DNA from: a virus
Lineage: Duplodnaviria; Caudoviricetes
DNA: 63,168 nucleotides
Virus record (IMG/VR): IMGVR_UViG_3300034093_001431
Coordinates: 1 to 63,168 of that record
Strand: one strand, 5' to 3'
A program made the position numbers and the translations under genes. The notes under the pieces were generated by a model that did no database searches, was not told the DNA's origin, and saw only the letters and a list, made by a program, of their open reading frames with translations. Positions 15,726 to 63,168 of the stretch are shown here, piece by piece. Numbering within the stretch: position 1 is the stretch's first letter; each line of letters begins with the position of its first letter.

Positions 15726-18115
15726 TGTCTAAGTACCACGATAAATACAAGAGAGAGCAGCAGTATATAATGTACAATCTGGACGACCCTGACTTGGGCG
15801 GAGATAACGCCATCAAGGTTGAGCTGCCTACTCTTGAATCCTTCTATGACATGCCTTGGGATGAGGCGGTCAAGTTAGTGGACGGGTACGGGCTAGACCC
15901 TAAGGATCAGAAGTTTGACACATACAGGGACGCGGGGTACTTTAGCCTTCCGCCAAAGTTAAAGAGTATAGAAGAGCATGTAAGAAGGAAGAAGAAACTC
16001 AAGCCGAAGGATAAGCTGTTTGCTGAAGACTTCTTGGAAGACGTGGAGTCCGACCCTGTGTATTACAGGGAGGAGATAGAGTACATACAGCGCACTAGGA
16101 ACAGATCCGTTAGCGGGTACTGGTGCTTCATAAAAGGCAGGCCCACCTACATAGACGGGTGGCATTATACCTACCTGAACTTTACACCTATAGATAACGA
16201 TAACAGGAAAGACAGGATGCCTGACTACAGGGACGTGGACAGGAGGATCGTCTTGTTTTATCGATGGGCCTACACCACCACGTCCTCAAAGTTCAAGTAC
16301 GTCTTGACTTACAACAAGGACGGCAGGGTAAAGAAGAAGTACTTCAACAACAAGAACACGATATCTCAGTTTATCAAATTTGAAAAGCTGGGTGATTACT
16401 TTGTCGAAGACGAGGGGTATGACATAGACTTGGGTTACAGGACAGTGTTCGGCGTCGTGTTCCCTAAGCGCCGACGTGTAGGTGCCACGTTCCTTAGTGC
16501 CCACATCGGCATGCGTATAGCCGTGGACAACAGCATGGGCACGTTTGCGATTCAGGCGTTGACAGAGGACACAGCTATCGAGGACGTCTACCAGAAGAAG
16601 GTGCTAGCCTCTTGGAGGCACTACCCGTTCTTCTTAAAACCCTGCGCCTCACCAGCCGACACCAACGCGCTTGTCTTTACAAAGAAGGATCAGGTCGCGT
16701 TCGCTAACGACGTGGTGGAACACGGCGGGTGGATCAGGCCAAGGTCTTCAGCCAACAAGGCATTCGACGGTAACAAGCTGTTTGCTTACCTGAATGATGA
16801 GTCTGGAAAGAAGACGAGCGGCAACGTACTGCACGAGTTCACTGACACTATACGAAACGCCCTAGCTCAGGGTCAGAACATACACGGGTTTGCCATGTAC
16901 ACCTCAACCTTTGGAGAGTTCGAGAGCGGTGGAGGTAAGGAATACTTCGACCTGTGCGTGAAGTCATATGCACACAAGCGTAACGACAACGGTATCACAG
17001 CTTCTGGTCTGGTCACCTTGTTCATACCAGCGTATGACGGTTATGACGGGAGGGTCGACCAGTACGGTGAATCTATAATAGAAGACCCTGTCGAGGCTTA
17101 CATTAACCTAACAGGTGAACTCTGCGAGGAGGGTGCCAAGACTACCCTCATGAAGACGAGGTCTTACCTTGAGGAAATCAAGGACTGGAATGGTTTGAAC
17201 AACGAGGTAAGGAACAACCCGTTCACTCTCCGAGAGGCGGGCAAGAAGGGTAACAGGTCTAACTTCTGGGATGTTAGTATAAACAGGACAAGGATAAGTG
17301 AGCTTAAGTTTGGAGAGAACAAAGTGCTCGACGTTAATTTCGAGTGGACGAATGGGAAGTGGTCACCGGTAAGGATTGTCGACGGAACGCCTGAGCGCCC
17401 CGGTAAGTGGAAGGTTAGCTTAAGGCCCGCCCCGCAGTACGTTAACAGGTTCAGCTGGGATGCTAGGATAGATAGTTACACCCCGGACCCAGACACTGTA
17501 GGTAAGTATATCCTTGGGACCGACCCCTTCAGCTACGACAACAAGGACGTGGTAGGTAAGAAGAAGTCTAACGGTGGTGGCGCCATGTACATGCCGCACG
17601 ATCCGATGATCGACACCCCGGACAAGTCACCTTCAGATTACGTGACAGGCGACTTTATTGCGACATACAACAACAGGGTTGAGACCACCGACGAGTACTG
17701 TGAAGACATGCTCCTAGCCGCCGTCTATTGCGGGGCCTTGGTCTTTACCGAAAGGAACGTGGACCATATTATAAAGTACTTCAGGAACAACCACGCATCA
17801 GCGTACCTGCTCCACCAGATAGATCCGCTGACCGGAAGGATAGAGCCGGTGCCGGGGGTGAGGACAGGGACAGGGGTTCACGAGAAGATATTTGCCAAGT
17901 ACGGGGACTACGTGAAGACAGTCGGTCACAGGGCTAGGCACATAGAGATACTTGAAGAGATTGATGGGGTTCAGAGTTTTAACGACATGACCAACTATGA
18001 CCTCTTTGCTGCGGGAGGGATGGCCCTGCTCGGGGCTGAGAGCAAGCACACTGAGATTATTAAGTCCAACAATACCAGCAATGATATAAGCGGCTTTATT
18101 GATCTATACGATTAA
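15725..18115 (+). CDS. terL: Terminase large subunit (crAss-like type)
   Basis: PKRRRVGAT Walker A variant, LNDESGK Walker B, TST coupling motif, GTDP nuclease, ERN, YDLF. Confidence 0.9.
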   Translation: MSKYHDKYKREQQYIMYNLDDPDLGGDNAIKVELPTLESFYDMPWDEAVKLVDGYGLDPKDQKFDTYRDAGYFSLPPKLKSIEEHVRRKKKLKPKDKLFAEDFLEDVESDPVYYREEIEYIQRTRNRSVSGYWCFIKGRPTYIDGWHYTYLNFTPIDNDNRKDRMPDYRDVDRRIVLFYRWAYTTTSSKFKYVLTYNKDGRVKKKYFNNKNTISQFIKFEKLGDYFVEDEGYDIDLGYRTVFGVVFPKRRRVGATFLSAHIGMRIAVDNSMGTFAIQALTEDTAIEDVYQKKVLASWRHYPFFLKPCASPADTNALVFTKKDQVAFANDVVEHGGWIRPRSSANKAFDGNKLFAYLNDESGKKTSGNVLHEFTDTIRNALAQGQNIHGFAMYTSTFGEFESGGGKEYFDLCVKSYAHKRNDNGITASGLVTLFIPAYDGYDGRVDQYGESIIEDPVEAYINLTGELCEEGAKTTLMKTRSYLEEIKDWNGLNNEVRNNPFTLREAGKKGNRSNFWDVSINRTRISELKFGENKVLDVNFEWTNGKWSPVRIVDGTPERPGKWKVSLRPAPQYVNRFSWDARIDSYTPDPDTVGKYILGTDPFSYDNKDVVGKKKSNGGGAMYMPHDPMIDTPDKSPSDYVTGDFIATYNNRVETTDEYCEDMLLAAVYCGALVFTERNVDHIIKYFRNNHASAYLLHQIDPLTGRIEPVPGVRTGTGVHEKIFAKYGDYVKTVGHRARHIEILEEIDGVQSFNDMTNYDLFAAGGMALLGAESKHTEIIKSNNTSNDISGFIDLYD

Positions 18116-21708: not shown

Positions 21709-23106
21709 ATGAATCCAAATTCAGTTAATCCAAATACTCCGGGTTACGCGCAGTCGAGCATCCTAGCGGTGTCTGACTTTGTACGTCCGGATTTCCAGAC
21801 TAAGCTGTTCAAGCAGTACGGTCAGTTCATGGACGAACTCTTGCTGCTTAAGCGCATGCAGGCTACCCGTCCTATTCGCAACGCATCAGGCGGTTTCCAC
21901 TTTGAAGAAGATTACTACGATAACTTCATCGAGGTGAAGGCTGATGCTGGTACTGCTACAACTACTCTTGAGTTCACTATTGCGAACTCACAGATCGAGA
22001 CAGTTGGATCGGTGCGCACAGTGTATGTTAATGTTGGGGACCTTATCTACGATCCGATCGCTATGATCCGTGGTCAGGTTATTGACGTTGACATCCCGCC
22101 TTCTGGTGACATTACTGTTACGGCTAAGTCTCTCCGTGGCGAGACATGGACTGTGCCAACAGCAGGTGACAAGTACGGTATCTACTCTAACGCATACGAC
22201 GAGAACACAGACCAGCCTGATGCTAAGTCAAGCTACTGGGAGAAGTTCTCATTCAAGTTGCAGACTTTGAAGACTTCTGCCTTGATTACAGGTAACGCGT
22301 CTATCGACCAGCTCTTCCCTGAGACTGACGAGGCGGGTAACTTCGTAGGTAACTGGGGTGGTGTTCAGCGTACACAGGCTGAGTTCCGTCACTTGAAGTC
22401 AACCATCGGTCAGTTGATCCTTGGTTTGGAGTCTAACCAGTCAGGTGTGTCTCAGACTACACACGGTATGATGGACCGCTTCTTGAACCGTGCACAGACA
22501 GTTCAGAGCAACGGTATGTCTAACCCAATCGGTACACTAGAAGACCTTATCGATGTTCTTAAGCCTGTAAATGCTGAGAACAACTACATGGGTTGGTTGT
22601 GCCGCGAGGTTAACCGCCCGCTTCAGAACGCTTTGTTGACAGAGTTCCAGAACGCTAACATCTCTGCAGTGCGTCGTCAGTCTGCTGAAATTATCTTCGG
22701 CGAGGGCGAGGCTTCTGAGAACATGTACGCGACATTCGATTTTGAATGCATGGTTAAGGAAGGTATGACGTTCAACCTACGTGCGTTTGACTTATCTTAT
22801 GACCCAAAGGTATTTGGTCTAGGTGGCGCTAACAACCAGTTTGTTAACACAGCTTACTTCTTGCCAGCAGGTACAGGGTATGACGCTCAGGGTGCATCAC
22901 GCCGCCACATGGAATTGGCTTACGGTGTCAACGGTGACAACGGTCAGGATCGTATGATGAAGATTTGGGAGACTGGTGCTAACGCTCCTGTTCCAACGAA
23001 CGCGATCGATAACCGAGTAACTCACTACTTGACTCACTTCGGTATCCAGTTCTTCTCACTTAAGCAGTGTGCTATCATCTACAATGAGGACTTGATCCCA
23101 TCGTAA
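21709..23106 (+). CDS. Major capsid protein (HK97 fold, crAss-like)
   Basis: 465 aa, strongly biased codon use, position, followed by terminator. Confidence 0.85.
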   Translation: MNPNSVNPNTPGYAQSSILAVSDFVRPDFQTKLFKQYGQFMDELLLLKRMQATRPIRNASGGFHFEEDYYDNFIEVKADAGTATTTLEFTIANSQIETVGSVRTVYVNVGDLIYDPIAMIRGQVIDVDIPPSGDITVTAKSLRGETWTVPTAGDKYGIYSNAYDENTDQPDAKSSYWEKFSFKLQTLKTSALITGNASIDQLFPETDEAGNFVGNWGGVQRTQAEFRHLKSTIGQLILGLESNQSGVSQTTHGMMDRFLNRAQTVQSNGMSNPIGTLEDLIDVLKPVNAENNYMGWLCREVNRPLQNALLTEFQNANISAVRRQSAEIIFGEGEASENMYATFDFECMVKEGMTFNLRAFDLSYDPKVFGLGGANNQFVNTAYFLPAGTGYDAQGASRRHMELAYGVNGDNGQDRMMKIWETGANAPVPTNAIDNRVTHYLTHFGIQFFSLKQCAIIYNEDLIPS

Positions 23107-54939: not shown

Positions 54940-55434
54940 TTACTTTATTTGCAGGTTATTGTTCACTGAGATTGAGGCCCCGAGTACCACGGCTCCAGAC
55001 TTAATCGCGTCCTTTATTTTCGCCTTGTCTACCCTCCACTCTTCCTTCTTCACCTTGTACTCTATCGGCACAAGGTTCTCGTCCTCTACCTCAACAGACT
55101 CAGACTTCCTGAATGACACGCTGATGAGCGGGGTTGTTATCTTCTGCACGCCCATGTCTTCCATCGCCCCCTTGAGTCGCTGCTTCAGCGAGTCCACGTT
55201 GCGGGCGTTGCGAGCCTTTAATATTTTCAATCGCTCCATCTCCGCGTCGATGATGGTGTTGTTTGTCTCGTAAGCCTTCATGATGAAGCTATAGTTCTGC
55301 GCCTTCACCTCGATGCTTGACGACACGGCGTCTAATCTTTCTGCGATCTCTGGGGTGATCTCACCCTCTGCCATCTCGATCTCTAGCATGATCTCCTTGT
55401 ACTCTTGGGAGATGTTAAATAATGACTGGTTCAT
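54940..55434 (-). CDS. Siphovirus Gp157-family protein
   Basis: SLFNI...RKSESVEV..IP..Y...DKAKIKDAIKSG..V.GA...NLQIK. Confidence 0.85.
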   Translation of the reverse strand: MNQSLFNISQEYKEIMLEIEMAEGEITPEIAERLDAVSSSIEVKAQNYSFIMKAYETNNTIIDAEMERLKILKARNARNVDSLKQRLKGAMEDMGVQKITTPLISVSFRKSESVEVEDENLVPIEYKVKKEEWRVDKAKIKDAIKSGAVVLGASISVNNNLQIK

Positions 55435-55435
55435 A

Positions 55436-56077
55436 TTACTTGTTTGTTTTGATTGCTGTTAACTTTGCTTTCACTTCCTTGTTCACGCGGTACTTCTTGT
55501 ACACATCCTCGATAGACCCGCCCTTCTGAATGTGCGCGACCACCTTGGTATAATTCTCAGACGATTCATCTAGCCAAGGCTTCTCCTTAGCTGGCTGTTG
55601 AGCGGCAGGCGCCACGTTGGACTTCTCCTTCCCGTCTGGTCTGATGATAGCGTCCACATCATCCTCGTCCGTGGATACTAAGAACTGCTTGAGTAGGAAG
55701 TACCTGATCGCGTAAGTGACAGCTGACCCGAAGCCCTTGTCCCAGTCGTTCATCCCGTTACCCGCCCACATACAGTCCATGCTCTCGCCTGATTCGATAT
55801 CTATCCAAGTCATCTTCATGGTGATGGACGTGAACACTTCCTTCTTTACGTTACCCTTGGAGGTGGTGTATTCCTGAGTCTGGTTACTCATGCTGAGTAC
55901 CTCCGACTTAAGGATGACCTTGTGCTCGTCCATCAGTGGTCGGATGATACCGATAATCTTGTCCCCGCTAACGTACTTAAAACCGTTGGGGTTGTAATTG
56001 CTCTTGGTGTCCTCGTCCTTTGCGACAGCTCTCACCTTGCACTGAATTTCGTGCAGCTTTTTTAATAGATGCTTCAT
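55436..56077 (-). CDS. erf: ERF-family single-strand annealing protein
   Basis: GSAVTYAIRYFL...L.STDEDDVD; C-terminal KPWL. Confidence 0.88.
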   Translation of the reverse strand: MKHLLKKLHEIQCKVRAVAKDEDTKSNYNPNGFKYVSGDKIIGIIRPLMDEHKVILKSEVLSMSNQTQEYTTSKGNVKKEVFTSITMKMTWIDIESGESMDCMWAGNGMNDWDKGFGSAVTYAIRYFLLKQFLVSTDEDDVDAIIRPDGKEKSNVAPAAQQPAKEKPWLDESSENYTKVVAHIQKGGSIEDVYKKYRVNKEVKAKLTAIKTNK

Positions 56078-59915: not shown

Positions 59916-60106
59916 TATCCTTCTATCTCTCTAAATTCTAACTCGTCAATGATCAGGGACCTCTCGTTCTCCACTTCCTTGTATATCCTGTCGCCGCTGT
60001 CTATGACGTGACAGTATTCGTTGAGTGTACCTAGCACCTCGTTGAGGCAGTGCAGTCGTTCGGATAAGGTGTACCCGCTCAGTTGTTTTACTTGCTTCTT
60101 ATTCAT
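59915..60106 (-). CDS. Hypothetical early protein (start MNKKQVK)
   Basis: A-rich leader; stop overlaps tRNA mimic. Confidence 0.6.
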   Translation of the reverse strand: MNKKQVKQLSGYTLSERLHCLNEVLGTLNEYCHVIDSGDRIYKEVENERSLIIDELEFREIEG

Positions 60107-60117
60107 TGCTTTGGTTT

Positions 60118-60402
60118 TTATTGGGCGCATAGTTCCCACTGTTGATACTTTTTTATAGACCTGCCGTCTAGGCCAAGGCGGCTGCAAACGAACTTCGCTA
60201 GTTTTTTGAGACCTCGCTCGGTGTCTAGCCTGTTAGTGCCGATGGCTTCAACTACTTCGCTAGGGCTCATGCCTAGCACCCTGCTACAGAACTTTACATC
60301 CTGTCCTAGGTAGAAAGTTTTGGTGACCTTGCCTGTGGTGCAGTGCAGCGTCCAGTTGTGTTCAAACCCGTAGTGTGACGATACTGTGATGGTAGCTTTC
60401 AT
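60118..60402 (-). CDS. Hypothetical early protein
   Basis: Operon context. Confidence 0.65.
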   Translation of the reverse strand: MKATITVSSHYGFEHNWTLHCTTGKVTKTFYLGQDVKFCSRVLGMSPSEVVEAIGTNRLDTERGLKKLAKFVCSRLGLDGRSIKKYQQWELCAQ

Positions 60403-60403
60403 C

Positions 60404-60610
60404 TTATTTATTTTTTTGGTTATTGAATACTAAGTCCTCGTTGTACTCGAAGTTGCCAGTCTCTATAAACTCTAGCACCTCTTCCTTGTAAGCGTACTCG
60501 GCGCGGAGGTCGTCGCCTAGGTTTAGCTTGTACTGTTTGTGACCCTCGTGGTCCTGTGTGCGTGTGACCTGCCCTGTCAGGAGCATCCATGCAAAGATTA
60601 ATTTTGTCAT
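60404..60610 (-). CDS. Hypothetical early protein
   Basis: Operon context. Confidence 0.6.
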   Translation of the reverse strand: MTKLIFAWMLLTGQVTRTQDHEGHKQYKLNLGDDLRAEYAYKEEVLEFIETGNFEYNEDLVFNNQKNK

Positions 60611-60879
60611 GCTGTTTTATTTATGGCGTATTTTATAGCCTTAGTGAGTGCCTTTCTTGTAGACTGTGACGCGTTCCTGAGGCCCGCGAAGGCCATCATC
60701 GCGCTCGTTACTGAGGCGAACTGAATAATCGCCCATGCAGCGAACTCGTACACGGTGTAGCCCTGTGACACTAGCCTGTACACCTCGTCATTTGTGTTGA
60801 ATTGACTGCCTTTAGGGTAGTCCCATGTTTCAGTCTCGATAGCGCTGATGTAGCGCTTGAGTATTTCGTTTGCTTTCAT
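60607..60879 (-). CDS. Hypothetical early protein
   Basis: Operon context. Confidence 0.6.
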   Translation of the reverse strand: MKANEILKRYISAIETETWDYPKGSQFNTNDEVYRLVSQGYTVYEFAAWAIIQFASVTSAMMAFAGLRNASQSTRKALTKAIKYAINKTA

Positions 60880-61136
60880 GCTTTTGATTTAAAATATATT
60901 TTAAGTAATTCAAGATCGCTAGGTTCATCCGATAAATTAGGCTCAGCACCTTGCGTATCGGAGAAGTATAACTCCTCTATGTATTCAAAGAAACTGTGTC
61001 TCTCAAAATAATCCATCTTGCGAAATAAACCCCTCGCTTGTCGGTGTTGACCATTAACCTTGCTTTCAAGGATGTAGTCAAAATATTCTTGCAAGGTGTT
61101 AAAGTTTAGTTCGGTGACATAACTTGGAATCCTCAT
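60876..61136 (-). CDS. Hypothetical early protein
   Basis: EYFDYILESKVNGQ..QA..LF motif; downstream of hammerhead. Confidence 0.65.
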   Translation of the reverse strand: MRIPSYVTELNFNTLQEYFDYILESKVNGQHRQARGLFRKMDYFERHSFFEYIEELYFSDTQGAEPNLSDEPSDLELLKIYFKSKA

Positions 61137-61154
61137 AAGTATGTTTTATTTATT

Positions 61155-61211
61155 GGTTAAGACGGGCGCTAATTGCACCCGTTTCGACTAATTAAGTCTC
61201 GTCAGTTAACC
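61155..61211 (-). ncRNA. Type I hammerhead ribozyme (HHR-C)
   Basis: GGUUAA CUGACGA GAC-UUAAUUA-GUC GAAA CGGGUGC-AAUUA-GCGCCCG UC^UUAACC. Confidence 0.93.
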
Positions 61212-61666
61212 TTGGCTAATTCTTGAGCTACAGTCCTTGCATATGCTGACTTCTGTGCATAGGTCCCTGCCTGTTGTGGGGCAGGTAATTCTATAACCTT
61301 GTCGAGGTCTACGCTGTAGATGGCCCGTTGATTATTAAGCATGCCGTACAGGGCAGCCTCTTCGATGCTATCAAACTGATAAGACACGTCTAGCACTAGC
61401 TTTCCGTTTTCCCACCACCCGCCGATGTGGGCGCCGTTATTCATCAGGTCCTTGCGGTTATTTTCGATGAAGGCATTGACCTCTGCGGTTATGACGTCTA
61501 CCTTGAGGTCCCGCTTGTACCTGTTGTAAACAGGCGACAAGTTAACGATGTGCTCGCTTTTTGCCTGAGAGGCGAACACGCCTGTTGTAGGCTTCCCTGT
61601 AGTCAGGCTGTAGCTTGCGCCTGTGCTGTCCACTAGGGACTCGATAAAAGATTGTAAGTTATTCAT
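61202..61666 (-). CDS. Hypothetical early protein
   Basis: IGGW..NGKLVLDVS...A...G..NNQRAIY; stop UGA is part of hammerhead core. Confidence 0.7.
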   Translation of the reverse strand: MNNLQSFIESLVDSTGASYSLTTGKPTTGVFASQAKSEHIVNLSPVYNRYKRDLKVDVITAEVNAFIENNRKDLMNNGAHIGGWWENGKLVLDVSYQFDSIEEAALYGMLNNQRAIYSVDLDKVIELPAPQQAGTYAQKSAYARTVAQELAKVN

Positions 61667-61676
61667 TGTATTTGGT

Positions 61677-61922
61677 TTATTGATAAATAATTCTTGTTAC
61701 TGTTGCGACCTCGTCACCTGTGTGTAGTTGATAGGCTATGCCGTCAGTTTGGTAGTGGACCGTGTCGCCTTTTTGAAGGGTTTCGCTAGCTATGAAGAAC
61801 GAAACGTCGCCGTCCTCAGCTATTGCTATCCTGTTTTTAACGTCCTCGACCTTCTCAAAGGTCTCCTTTTCGCACGAAGCGAGCGCTGTTGCTAGCATTA
61901 TTGCTGTTATATATCTTCTCAT
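61677..61922 (-). CDS. Lipoprotein
   Basis: MRRYITAIMLATALASC lipobox. Confidence 0.75.
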   Translation of the reverse strand: MRRYITAIMLATALASCEKETFEKVEDVKNRIAIAEDGDVSFFIASETLQKGDTVHYQTDGIAYQLHTGDEVATVTRIIYQ

Positions 61923-61930
61923 ATTTTAAT

Positions 61931-61980
61931 GGTTAAGACGCCTCTCGGCGTTTCGTCCATACAGGACTCGTCAGTTAACC
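61931..61980 (-). ncRNA. Type I hammerhead ribozyme (HHR-B)
   Basis: GGUUAA CUGACGA GUCC-UGUAU-GGAC GAAA CGCC-GAGA-GGCG UC^UUAACC. Confidence 0.95.
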
Positions 61981-62220
61981 TATCACCAATTCGTACGCTT
62001 GGAACGACGGCTCGTACTCTCCGTGCTCAGCCATCATGTCGTCAAGTTCGTAGAACTCGGTGTTTCCGATAGCTTGTAACTCGTGAGAGACGGCTATTAT
62101 CGGGTGCTTATCTCCTCTTGTTGGGTGCTCGTAGAACGTGATGACCTGCCCGAGTGAGTTAGTCATTTCCCCTAGCTTGGTAGGGTTATAGGACATGAAT
62201 TTAGAATAACTTGTGTTCAT
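61975..62220 (-). CDS. Hypothetical early protein
   Basis: NSLGQ.I.FYEHP.RGD motif; flanked by two hammerheads. Confidence 0.7.
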   Translation of the reverse strand: MNTSYSKFMSYNPTKLGEMTNSLGQVITFYEHPTRGDKHPIIAVSHELQAIGNTEFYELDDMMAEHGEYEPSFQAYELVIG

Positions 62221-62236
62221 TTTTGTAAAATTTAAT

Positions 62237-62292
62237 GGTTAAGACGGCCACAATTGTGACCGTTTCGAATATTTAATTCTCTTCAGTTAACC
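62237..62292 (-). ncRNA. Type I hammerhead ribozyme (HHR-A)
   Basis: GGUUAA CUGAAGA GAAU-UAAAU-AUUC GAAA CGGUCAC-AAUU-GUGGCCG UC^UUAACC. Confidence 0.93.
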
Positions 62293-62474
62293 TGTTCTAG
62301 GTTGACGCGGTAGTCATATCCGACACCGCCCGCCTCTTTGCCGTCCCAATTGTCTAGGTTATGCACTTCGCACAGGGCCTGTACACACTTTCTCGCGTCG
62401 CCATAAGAGGCGTAGAGGAGGTTTATTGAGTCAGGCTTCTGCATGGATGATAGGACTACTTTGTAATTTGTCAT
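62283..62474 (-). CDS. First early gene, hypothetical (start MTNYKVV)
   Basis: Leader UAACCAAUUAAAUUUUAC nearly identical to that of the next gene. Confidence 0.65.
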   Translation of the reverse strand: MTNYKVVLSSMQKPDSINLLYASYGDARKCVQALCEVHNLDNWDGKEAGGVGYDYRVNLEQVN

Positions 62475-62489
62475 GATAGTAAAATTTAA

Positions 62490-62792
62490 TTGGTTAGCGG
62501 GACATGGGGCGCACGATGCCCCTTGTACGTTAACATGTGACCTACTCACATACCCCGTATCTCTTGCGTCGCCTCCCTGTCTATTTAACAGGCTCGGGTC
62601 AGTTTAGCTAATTAAAACGCTGTAGTATGTTTCCTACATTATCGGGCTGACTCCCGTCCTTCGCTTGCGCTAAGGCTAACCATCTTGAGTTACCGTGAGA
62701 TGGTGAAAGCACGTTTTATGTCTTCTACGTTTTACCCGATATCACATCGATGCTACACGTAAGGGTTGACTACTCAGTCCCTGTCGTTTGAC
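62490..62792 (-). ncRNA. Long structured, probably pseudoknotted leader RNA
   Basis: Several hairpins and crossing long-range complements; no credible ORF. Confidence 0.5.
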
Positions 62793-62797
62793 GTCGG

Positions 62798-62830
62798 CAA
62801 AGATGGGGTCATCGTTTTTAAATTTCCAAA
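62798..62830 (-). promoter_or_regulatory. Putative early promoter (TTTG-N21-CATCTTTG)
   Basis: -33/-7 Bacteroidota-type spacing with one mismatch in the -7 box. Confidence 0.5.
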
Positions 62831-63069
62831 TAAATTTTACATTAACCTTCTGAAAGGCGCAATTTATGCGGGTGAAATTTTTATTTTCTCAGTGTTTACG
62901 AGGGATGCAGGAGGGGAAAACACACTAAACCATTGCAAACACAGGTGGTTCAGGGGGCGCAAAGTAACACAGGTGAGCGCAATTTTGGTACAGGTTCCGT
63001 GTCAACAGGGGAGTAAAAGGGTGCCGATGACAGGGTGAAAGTAACTAGCGAGGGAGGAGGGGAGGAGGG

Positions 63070-63168
63070 GAGTAGAATAAGGGGGAGTGGAGGGGGAGTC
63101 ACACCGAGCCATGTTTACGCCATCCCTGTTCCACTTTCCACCACAACAGCACCACACCGCACCACTTT
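63070..63168. repeat. Terminal direct repeat (copy 2)
   Basis: Identical to 1-99. Confidence 0.9.

Follow-up and report, generated by a model that had tools for sequence, protein, structure and literature searches.

The early polycistronic mRNA of phage T7 is cut between cistrons by RNase III, and the upstream message retains a hairpin at its 3' end. That processing depends on a protein, and it leaves 5'-phosphate and 3'-OH ends. Clustered hammerhead ribozymes that flank single phage genes were read in 2011 as cutting a long transcript to single-gene messages; according to the available part of that report, three triple prophage arrays cut a native polycistronic RNA of ~2 kb in vitro, and one of them did so in E. 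coli as well (PMC3088659). The purpose of bacterial and phage hammerheads was still called undefined, with more work needed, in the accessible part of a 2019 review (PMC6765202). The present analysis deals with three hammerhead ribozymes (HHRs) in the IMG/VR virus record IMGVR_UViG_3300034093_001431, which was analyzed at its full length of 63,168 base pairs (bp; henceforth “the window”) and which is the complete genome of an uncultured phage with 99-bp direct terminal repeats. Genes are oriented rightward up to ~52,058, and a leftward (minus-strand) gene block runs from ~62,500 down to 52,108; the three hammerheads lie at the head of this leftward block, all within 1.14 kb. It is probable that they are active type I ribozymes in a leftward operon and that they cut its polycistronic RNA into separate messages. 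In contrast to the processing by RNase III in T7, such cutting would be accomplished by RNA only, and it would leave 5'-OH and cyclic-phosphate ends.

The locus resembles the arrays of 2011, as these are described in the available part of PMC3088659, in that several closely spaced hammerheads are interspersed with small phage genes, whose identity varies; here, three copies on one strand bound a one-gene unit and a two-gene unit. It differs from what that part of the report describes in that all copies are type I, stem I is fixed as GGUUAA/UUAACC and provides a stop codon in each of two frames, a U-N-A-N-U loop closes a stem II of 4 bp, the leader of ~22 nucleotides (nt) has no Shine-Dalgarno sequence, and the hosts are apparently mainly Bacteroidota. 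The GGUUAA subtype may already be contained within the alignments of the supplement to that paper. In the initial annotation of this DNA, protein-free cutting of the polycistron had been proposed; the hammerheads are indeed placed for it, much as in the available text of PMC3088659, but the idea dates from 2011 and is not new. Among the papers listed, none was found, by title or abstract, to deal with the subtype, with its frame bias or with a link between it and phages of Bacteroidota. The locus adds no new principle; it points to a large, uniform and easily recognized subtype.

The three elements were delimited as follows (all coordinates are those of the window).

62292-62237, minus strand: HHR-A, a type I hammerhead with the predicted cut at 62243/62242 (stem I, 62292-62287 with 62242-62237; core CUGAAGA, 62286-62280; stem II, 62279-62267; GAAA, 62266-62263; stem III, 62262-62245; U16.1 and C17, 62244-62243)
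61980-61931, minus strand: HHR-B, a type I hammerhead with the predicted cut at 61937/61936
61211-61155, minus strand: HHR-C, a type I hammerhead with the predicted cut at 61161/61160

All three share the layout GGUUAA / CUGANGA / 13-nt hairpin / GAAA / stem III of 5-8 bp / GUC / UUAACC, in which the 13-nt hairpin is stem II (4 bp and a 5-nt loop in every copy). The catalytic core, CUGA(A/C)GA ... GAAA ... GUC, is complete in 3/3 copies, with the A15.1-U16.1 pair in place and a base other than G at the cleavage site (H17). The topology is that of type I throughout: stem I is open, and loops cap stems II and III. The predicted cut follows C17 in each case. The positions, full cores and three closed stems given in the initial annotation were all reproduced when the sequence was read, searched with the pattern and folded. 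The layout pattern was matched three times in the window and not once in any of 100 dinucleotide shuffles. When each copy was folded alone, the minimum-energy structure was the three-way hammerhead junction (z-scores of -3.4, -2.6 and -3.4). The sequences of stems II and III differ among A, B and C while their pairing is kept. This had been put forward as covariation; the observation stands, but a comparison of three copies is weak by itself, and the strong evidence is that from 138 members of the class.

To assemble that class, IMG/VR was scanned with a stem I-flavored pattern. At least 120 contig stretches were returned, and 17/120 of these loci held two to five copies of the pattern. For the assessment of covariation, 135 unique elements were aligned with the three window copies, giving 138 sequences; those columns that the search pattern had fixed are invariant and therefore uninformative. 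Paired cells amounted to 98.5%, compared to 77.2% in shuffles, and cells changed on both sides numbered 437, compared to 122; neither figure was reached by any of 500 shuffles. Pairing fell to 23-40% when the partner columns were slid by one to three positions. Changes on both sides were observed in 8 of the 15 pairs, i.e. in all of the free ones (two pairs of stem I and three pairs each of stems II and III), and stems II and III of the class pair far above shuffled sequence.

A model built from the class (R1) was then run on the first 100 loci, and 30 of its 160 matches lay outside the search pattern. Among these extra relatives, stem I varies as pairs (GCAUAA/UUAUGC, GGUCUA/UAGAUC and others), and the 15.2-16.2 pair is C-G, U-A, G-C or A-U. 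The core is intact in 28 of the 30, and the cleavage-site base H17 of those 28 is C or A, never G. Taken together, the covariation, the kept core and the restriction of the cleavage-site base to C or A make the pattern of the class, as far as can be judged from sequence, the signature of a catalytic hammerhead rather than that of a generic hairpin repeat. Within the window, R1 gave 64.5 bits for HHR-A, 64.4 bits for HHR-B and 66.8 bits for HHR-C, all three of which had been in its training set; the next best score was 18.7 bits, and no fourth copy was found in the window with this model.

These data bear directly on the possibility that the elements fold but act too slowly in the cell to matter as ribozymes, serving instead as binding sites for proteins or as hairpins between genes with a protective or punctuating role. 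Such a role would be in keeping with a minimal stem I for which no loop-loop contact is demonstrated, with scores below the Rfam thresholds, and with the existence of two relatives with damaged cores, from which it is evident that decay occurs. However, every catalytic base is kept in 3/3 copies and in 28/30 relatives while the stems vary freely. Invariant catalytic bases next to freely changing stems are hard to explain without selection for catalysis, and a structure that does not cut is accordingly considered very improbable. The two damaged relatives (L014:647-696, with CCGAUGA, and L092:146-201, with UUGAUAA) have intact stems and are likely decayed or inactive copies.

Conservation was also noted at positions that were not required by the search. 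The base 5' of stem I is A in 137/142 elements, the base 3' of stem I is A in 131/142, and loop II conforms to U-N-A-N-U (U1 in 121/123, A3 in 110/123 and U5 in 104/123). The flanking A residues and the conserved positions of loop II may supply the contact between stem I and stem II that is needed by natural hammerheads. Pairing of loop II with the leader in a pseudoknot was also weighed and discarded, as many leaders begin with CCAAAA, without a complement to the loop. Very dense arrays of the subtype were seen in L133 (7 copies, 5.8 kb), L138 (5 copies, 2.7 kb) and L144 (4 copies, 2.9 kb). L133 (5798 bases) is a contig binned in a metagenome-assembled genome (MAG) labelled Aliivibrio; all three are probably phage contigs caught in bins.

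A search with the hammerhead models of Rfam had been proposed in the initial annotation as a check. At the gathering score, there were no Rfam matches in the whole window, but matches to RF00163 and RF03152 below the threshold were obtained in E-value mode. With Hammerhead_1 (RF00163; gathering cut-off, 34 bits), run over 1.7 kb, HHR-B scored 29.3 bits (E 1e-4) and HHR-C 24.8 bits, and HHR-A was absent from the matches; the alignment of HHR-B with this model extends from end to end. With RAGATH-1-hammerhead (RF03152; cut-off, 56.3 bits), the scores were 31.2 (HHR-A), 28.9 and 19.2 bits. RF00163 has the same core, three-stem junction and open stem I as the window copies, but these score below its cut-off. 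RF03152 is alike in its core, stem III and A/U-rich stem I (model consensus ucuua...uaaga), whereas in its model a 5' hairpin is conserved and stem II has a single pair, as opposed to 4 bp in the window copies. Membership in RAGATH-1 was therefore rejected, given the scores below 56.3 bits, the stem II of 4 bp rather than one pair, and the unconserved 5' hairpin. The 5' hairpin that this model aligned was rejected as a feature in its own right, as it lies within coding sequence and has four non-standard pairs in copy B. Because the scores fall below the gathering cut-off, the subtype is missed by standard Rfam annotation.

The genes and leaders around the predicted cuts are listed here in the order of transcription.

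62283-62474, minus strand: gene a, 63 amino acids (aa) from the ATG at 62474, ending in ...QVN, with no family match
62221-62242, minus strand: leader after HHR-A, UUAACCAUUAAAUUUUACAAAA
61975-62220, minus strand: gene b, 81 aa, with a family match to PHROG 11770 (unknown function)
61923-61936, minus strand: leader after HHR-B
61677-61922, minus strand: gene c, 81 aa, with no PHROG or Pfam match
61202-61666, minus strand: gene d, 154 aa, ending in ...KVN, with no family match
61137-61160, minus strand: leader after HHR-C
60876-61136, minus strand: gene e, an open reading frame (ORF) of 86 aa

The stop codon of gene a (TGA, 62283) is the UGA of CUGA in the core of HHR-A, and that of gene d (UGA, 61204-61202) holds the same place in HHR-C. 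In HHR-B, the 5' strand of stem I ends with the gene b stop (UAA, 61977-61975). The final ...VN of the products of genes a and d is encoded by stem I. On the other side of the cuts, the ATG of gene b lies 22 nt past the cut of HHR-A, that of gene c 14 nt past the cut of HHR-B, and that of gene e 24 nt past the cut of HHR-C; all three leaders are A/U-rich and contain no G. The three stop overlaps and the three distances from cut to AUG had been recognized in the initial annotation and were confirmed, and the overlaps hold class-wide. Genes c and d are separated by 10 nt that hold no ribozyme, and gene e heads a leftward run of small genes that are tightly packed or overlapping. The longest ORF of gene a starts at the GTG at 62549 and comprises 88 aa. 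The N-terminus of gene c, MRRYITAIMLATALASC, looks like a lipoprotein signal with what we take to be a lipobox cysteine.

Across the class, 111/139 unique elements have an open frame, 40 codons or longer, whose end falls between -12 and +8 of CUGA; the frame ends in this interval include 43 UAA codons in stem I, 28 UGA codons of CUGA and 14 UAG codons overlapping the first base of stem I. When a wider interval and the longest frame were used, the respective numbers were 40, 25 and 14, i.e. the stop is located in stem I or the core in 79/139 elements, at -8, -3 or +1 relative to CUGA. The reading frame that lacks a ribozyme stop is used by 17/128 upstream genes, compared to an expectation of one third. 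Because this frame is underused, upstream genes can be said to take their stop preferentially from the ribozyme: overlap is favored, not mere adjacency. Downstream, an ORF of at least 40 codons with an ATG start was found within 120 nt of the cut in 123/139 unique elements, at a median distance of 22 nt. A recount of the leaders minus the window copies (120/136 elements) yielded 54% A and 9.5% G; a Shine-Dalgarno-like 4-mer was present in 23/120 leaders, and A was at -3 in 87/120. The downstream genes are small (median, 85 codons).

The position of the stops could also be taken as a sign of translation-gated cutting, the model put forward in the initial annotation. A ribosome terminating or stalled at a stop in stem I or the core would melt the ribozyme; cleavage would take place only when the upstream gene is untranslated, and the fate of the downstream message would be tied to upstream translation. 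Both the 79 elements with the stop in stem I or the core and the low use of the stop-less frame are what such gating would call for, but compaction explains the frame bias equally well, in that a motif with stops in two frames saves a codon. Moreover, 49/128 upstream genes stop at least 9 nt before CUGA, outside stem I (longest-ORF count). A ribosome should also leave a stop quickly, and cleavage is irreversible, so that occupancy would only delay the cut. Gating by translation is thus thought to be unlikely.

Evidence on the hosts of the class points mainly, but not exclusively, to Bacteroidota. The large terminase of this phage has 87 relatives in cultured phages at ~25% identity, 86 of them on Flavobacterium, Cellulophaga, Tenacibaculum or Maribacter, and a BT4734-like_N domain was found in the phage's 630-aa protein. 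No cultured phage was matched by 60000-63168 in a blastn search; a 61-nt ribozyme query alone matched Cellulophaga phage phi19:3. That phage has one unannotated copy of the class at 21769-21817 of its record (L124 4003-4051), where gp051 ends on the stem I UAA and gp050 begins 34 nt past the predicted cut. Flavobacterium phage elemoE 6-9C likewise has one unannotated copy, at 16304-16361 of its record (L127 1501-1558). In the species-genome collection, 5/5 records other than MAGs or bins are Bacteroidota (Pedobacter, three Mucilaginibacter and Paraflavitalea). The class seems to reside in lytic-type phage contigs, not in bacterial chromosomes.

In the available part of PMC6847099, Bacteroidetes are described as having no Shine-Dalgarno sequences, with initiation tuned by structure and upstream bases. 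The A-rich, Shine-Dalgarno-poor leaders of the class fit Bacteroidota ribosomes, which ignore Shine-Dalgarno sequences and favor unstructured leaders; the fit is suggestive only. We tentatively entertain, without much confidence, the idea that the subtype is a dedicated cistron separator for phages of Shine-Dalgarno-blind hosts (Bacteroidota). The cut would be needed for a short, A-rich leader with a 5'-OH, the stop in stem I would make termination and folding mutually exclusive, and gene, ribozyme and leader would be portable together as one expression cassette; the gains and losses of cassettes between strains would be accounted for in this way. The subtype is present in two cultured phage-host pairs (phi19:3 on C. 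baltica #19 and elemoE on Flavobacterium strain BAL314), and its geometry is fixed, with the stop in stem I and the start ~22 nt after the cut. These properties make the effect of the cuts on stability and translation directly testable, in a phylum with unusual initiation.

According to the preferred reading, i.e. that active hammerheads divide the leftward polycistron, each ribozyme would fold once its ~50-57 nt had been transcribed and would cut after GUC. Because stem I is an open helix, the whole ribozyme body would stay on the upstream fragment along with the upstream stop, and the 3' tail of this RNA would comprise two hairpins and a 2',3'-cyclic phosphate end. The downstream RNA would start with a 5'-OH end and would feature UUAACC and an unstructured, A-rich, G-free leader (14-24 nt). 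Stem I, with six pairs of which four are A-U, would fall apart after the cut, and the products would be released. Four pieces would be generated: a non-coding leader of ~300 nt with gene a, gene b (306 nt), genes c and d (776 nt), and the remaining operon. The stability and translation of these messages would be uncoupled from one another. As suggested in the initial annotation, the 5'-OH might also shield the downstream RNA from decay that depends on a 5'-monophosphate. A scan of the minus strand found neither a sigma-70-like promoter nor a terminator at the three junctions, which is a weak pointer to co-transcription.

A number of observations weigh against the division of a polycistron by these elements or against the host link drawn above. 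Above 59000, the minus strand is devoid of TAnnTTTG, a promoter motif of the Bacteroidota type; as no promoter was located, a single transcript across the units is assumed. All three copies score below the curated thresholds of Rfam. A possible competing fold exists for HHR-A: in the minimum-energy structure of a 96-nt stretch that includes its surroundings, the 5' strand of stem I is occupied by a hairpin, AACCU...AGGUU, whose other partner lies just upstream in coding sequence, at 62293-62310 on the minus strand. Stem I is only 6 bp long, without a loop or bulge, and no loop-loop contact is obvious. Activity at cellular Mg2+ depends on a tertiary contact between stems I and II, for which the conserved positions described above are candidate residues only. 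As for the hosts, 11/19 pattern-bearing stretches of the species-genome collection are in MAGs labelled as other phyla, and matches were found in 0/150 further Bacteroidota genomes compared to 3/150 Pseudomonadota, the latter being weak (34-38 bits) and the sampling uninformative.

The same DNA recurs in lake and freshwater metagenomes, and no RNA run was among the listed runs that contain it. Contigs of related phages from other lake samples differ from the window in this region. In one of them (run X4, 2112 nt), 62224 is joined to 62479, so gene a and HHR-A (62225-62478) are gone; a 12-base leader repeat fits both sides of the joint. Contigs of runs X2, X3 and X5 are without 61668-61923, which is gene c, and have 7-9 other bases at the joint. 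In lake samples, each of the three ribozymes coincides with a peak in contig depth and the flanking sequence is unrelated, which argues that the same motif is present in many other genomes of those samples. The apparent joints 61213>62014, 61213>62214, 61955>61178 and 61955>62479 were not counted as rearrangements, since they are probable cross-matches of the hammerheads of other phages. Gene, ribozyme and leader can be viewed as a modular unit, and this view fits with ribozymes that cut the operon into separate messages.

It could be argued from the same variation that the ribozyme and its conserved leader mark the borders of small-gene cassettes or promote their exchange. Homology for DNA recombination would be provided by the identical stem I and leader, or the excised RNA would be ligated or circularized. 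The related contigs are short of exactly one unit (gene a with HHR-A in X4; gene c in X2, X3 and X5), the depth peaks have unrelated flanks, and the neighboring genes are small, all of which is expected of cassette borders. DNA recombination, however, needs neither an invariant core nor a rule for the base at the cleavage site, and the gene c indel occurred without a ribozyme repeat on both sides. Spliced or circular products were sought by Perreault et al. and none were found (data not shown there), according to the available part of PMC3088659. A role in cassette exchange is compatible with the cutting of the polycistron and does not exclude it; as the explanation of these elements, it is judged quite improbable.

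The label “early” for the leftward block, and a promoter for it, are drawn only from gene content, namely small unknown genes and the following pair.

54940-56077, minus strand: genes for a Mu Gam-like end-protection protein and an Erf-like annealing protein, farther down the same leftward block

The stretch of ~300 nt ahead of gene a (62475-62792, minus strand) is non-coding: it contains no ORF, and no Rfam match was found when 62400-63168 was searched in E-value mode. It ends with ...GCUAACCAAUUAAAUUUUAC, which is near-identical to the leader 3' of HHR-A. Within this stretch, a long-range pairing was predicted between CGGGAGUCAG (62656-62647) and CUGACCCG (62602-62595). In the related contig X5, 62647 C>G occurs together with 62602 G>C, a compensatory change in this pairing by which a G-C pair becomes C-G.

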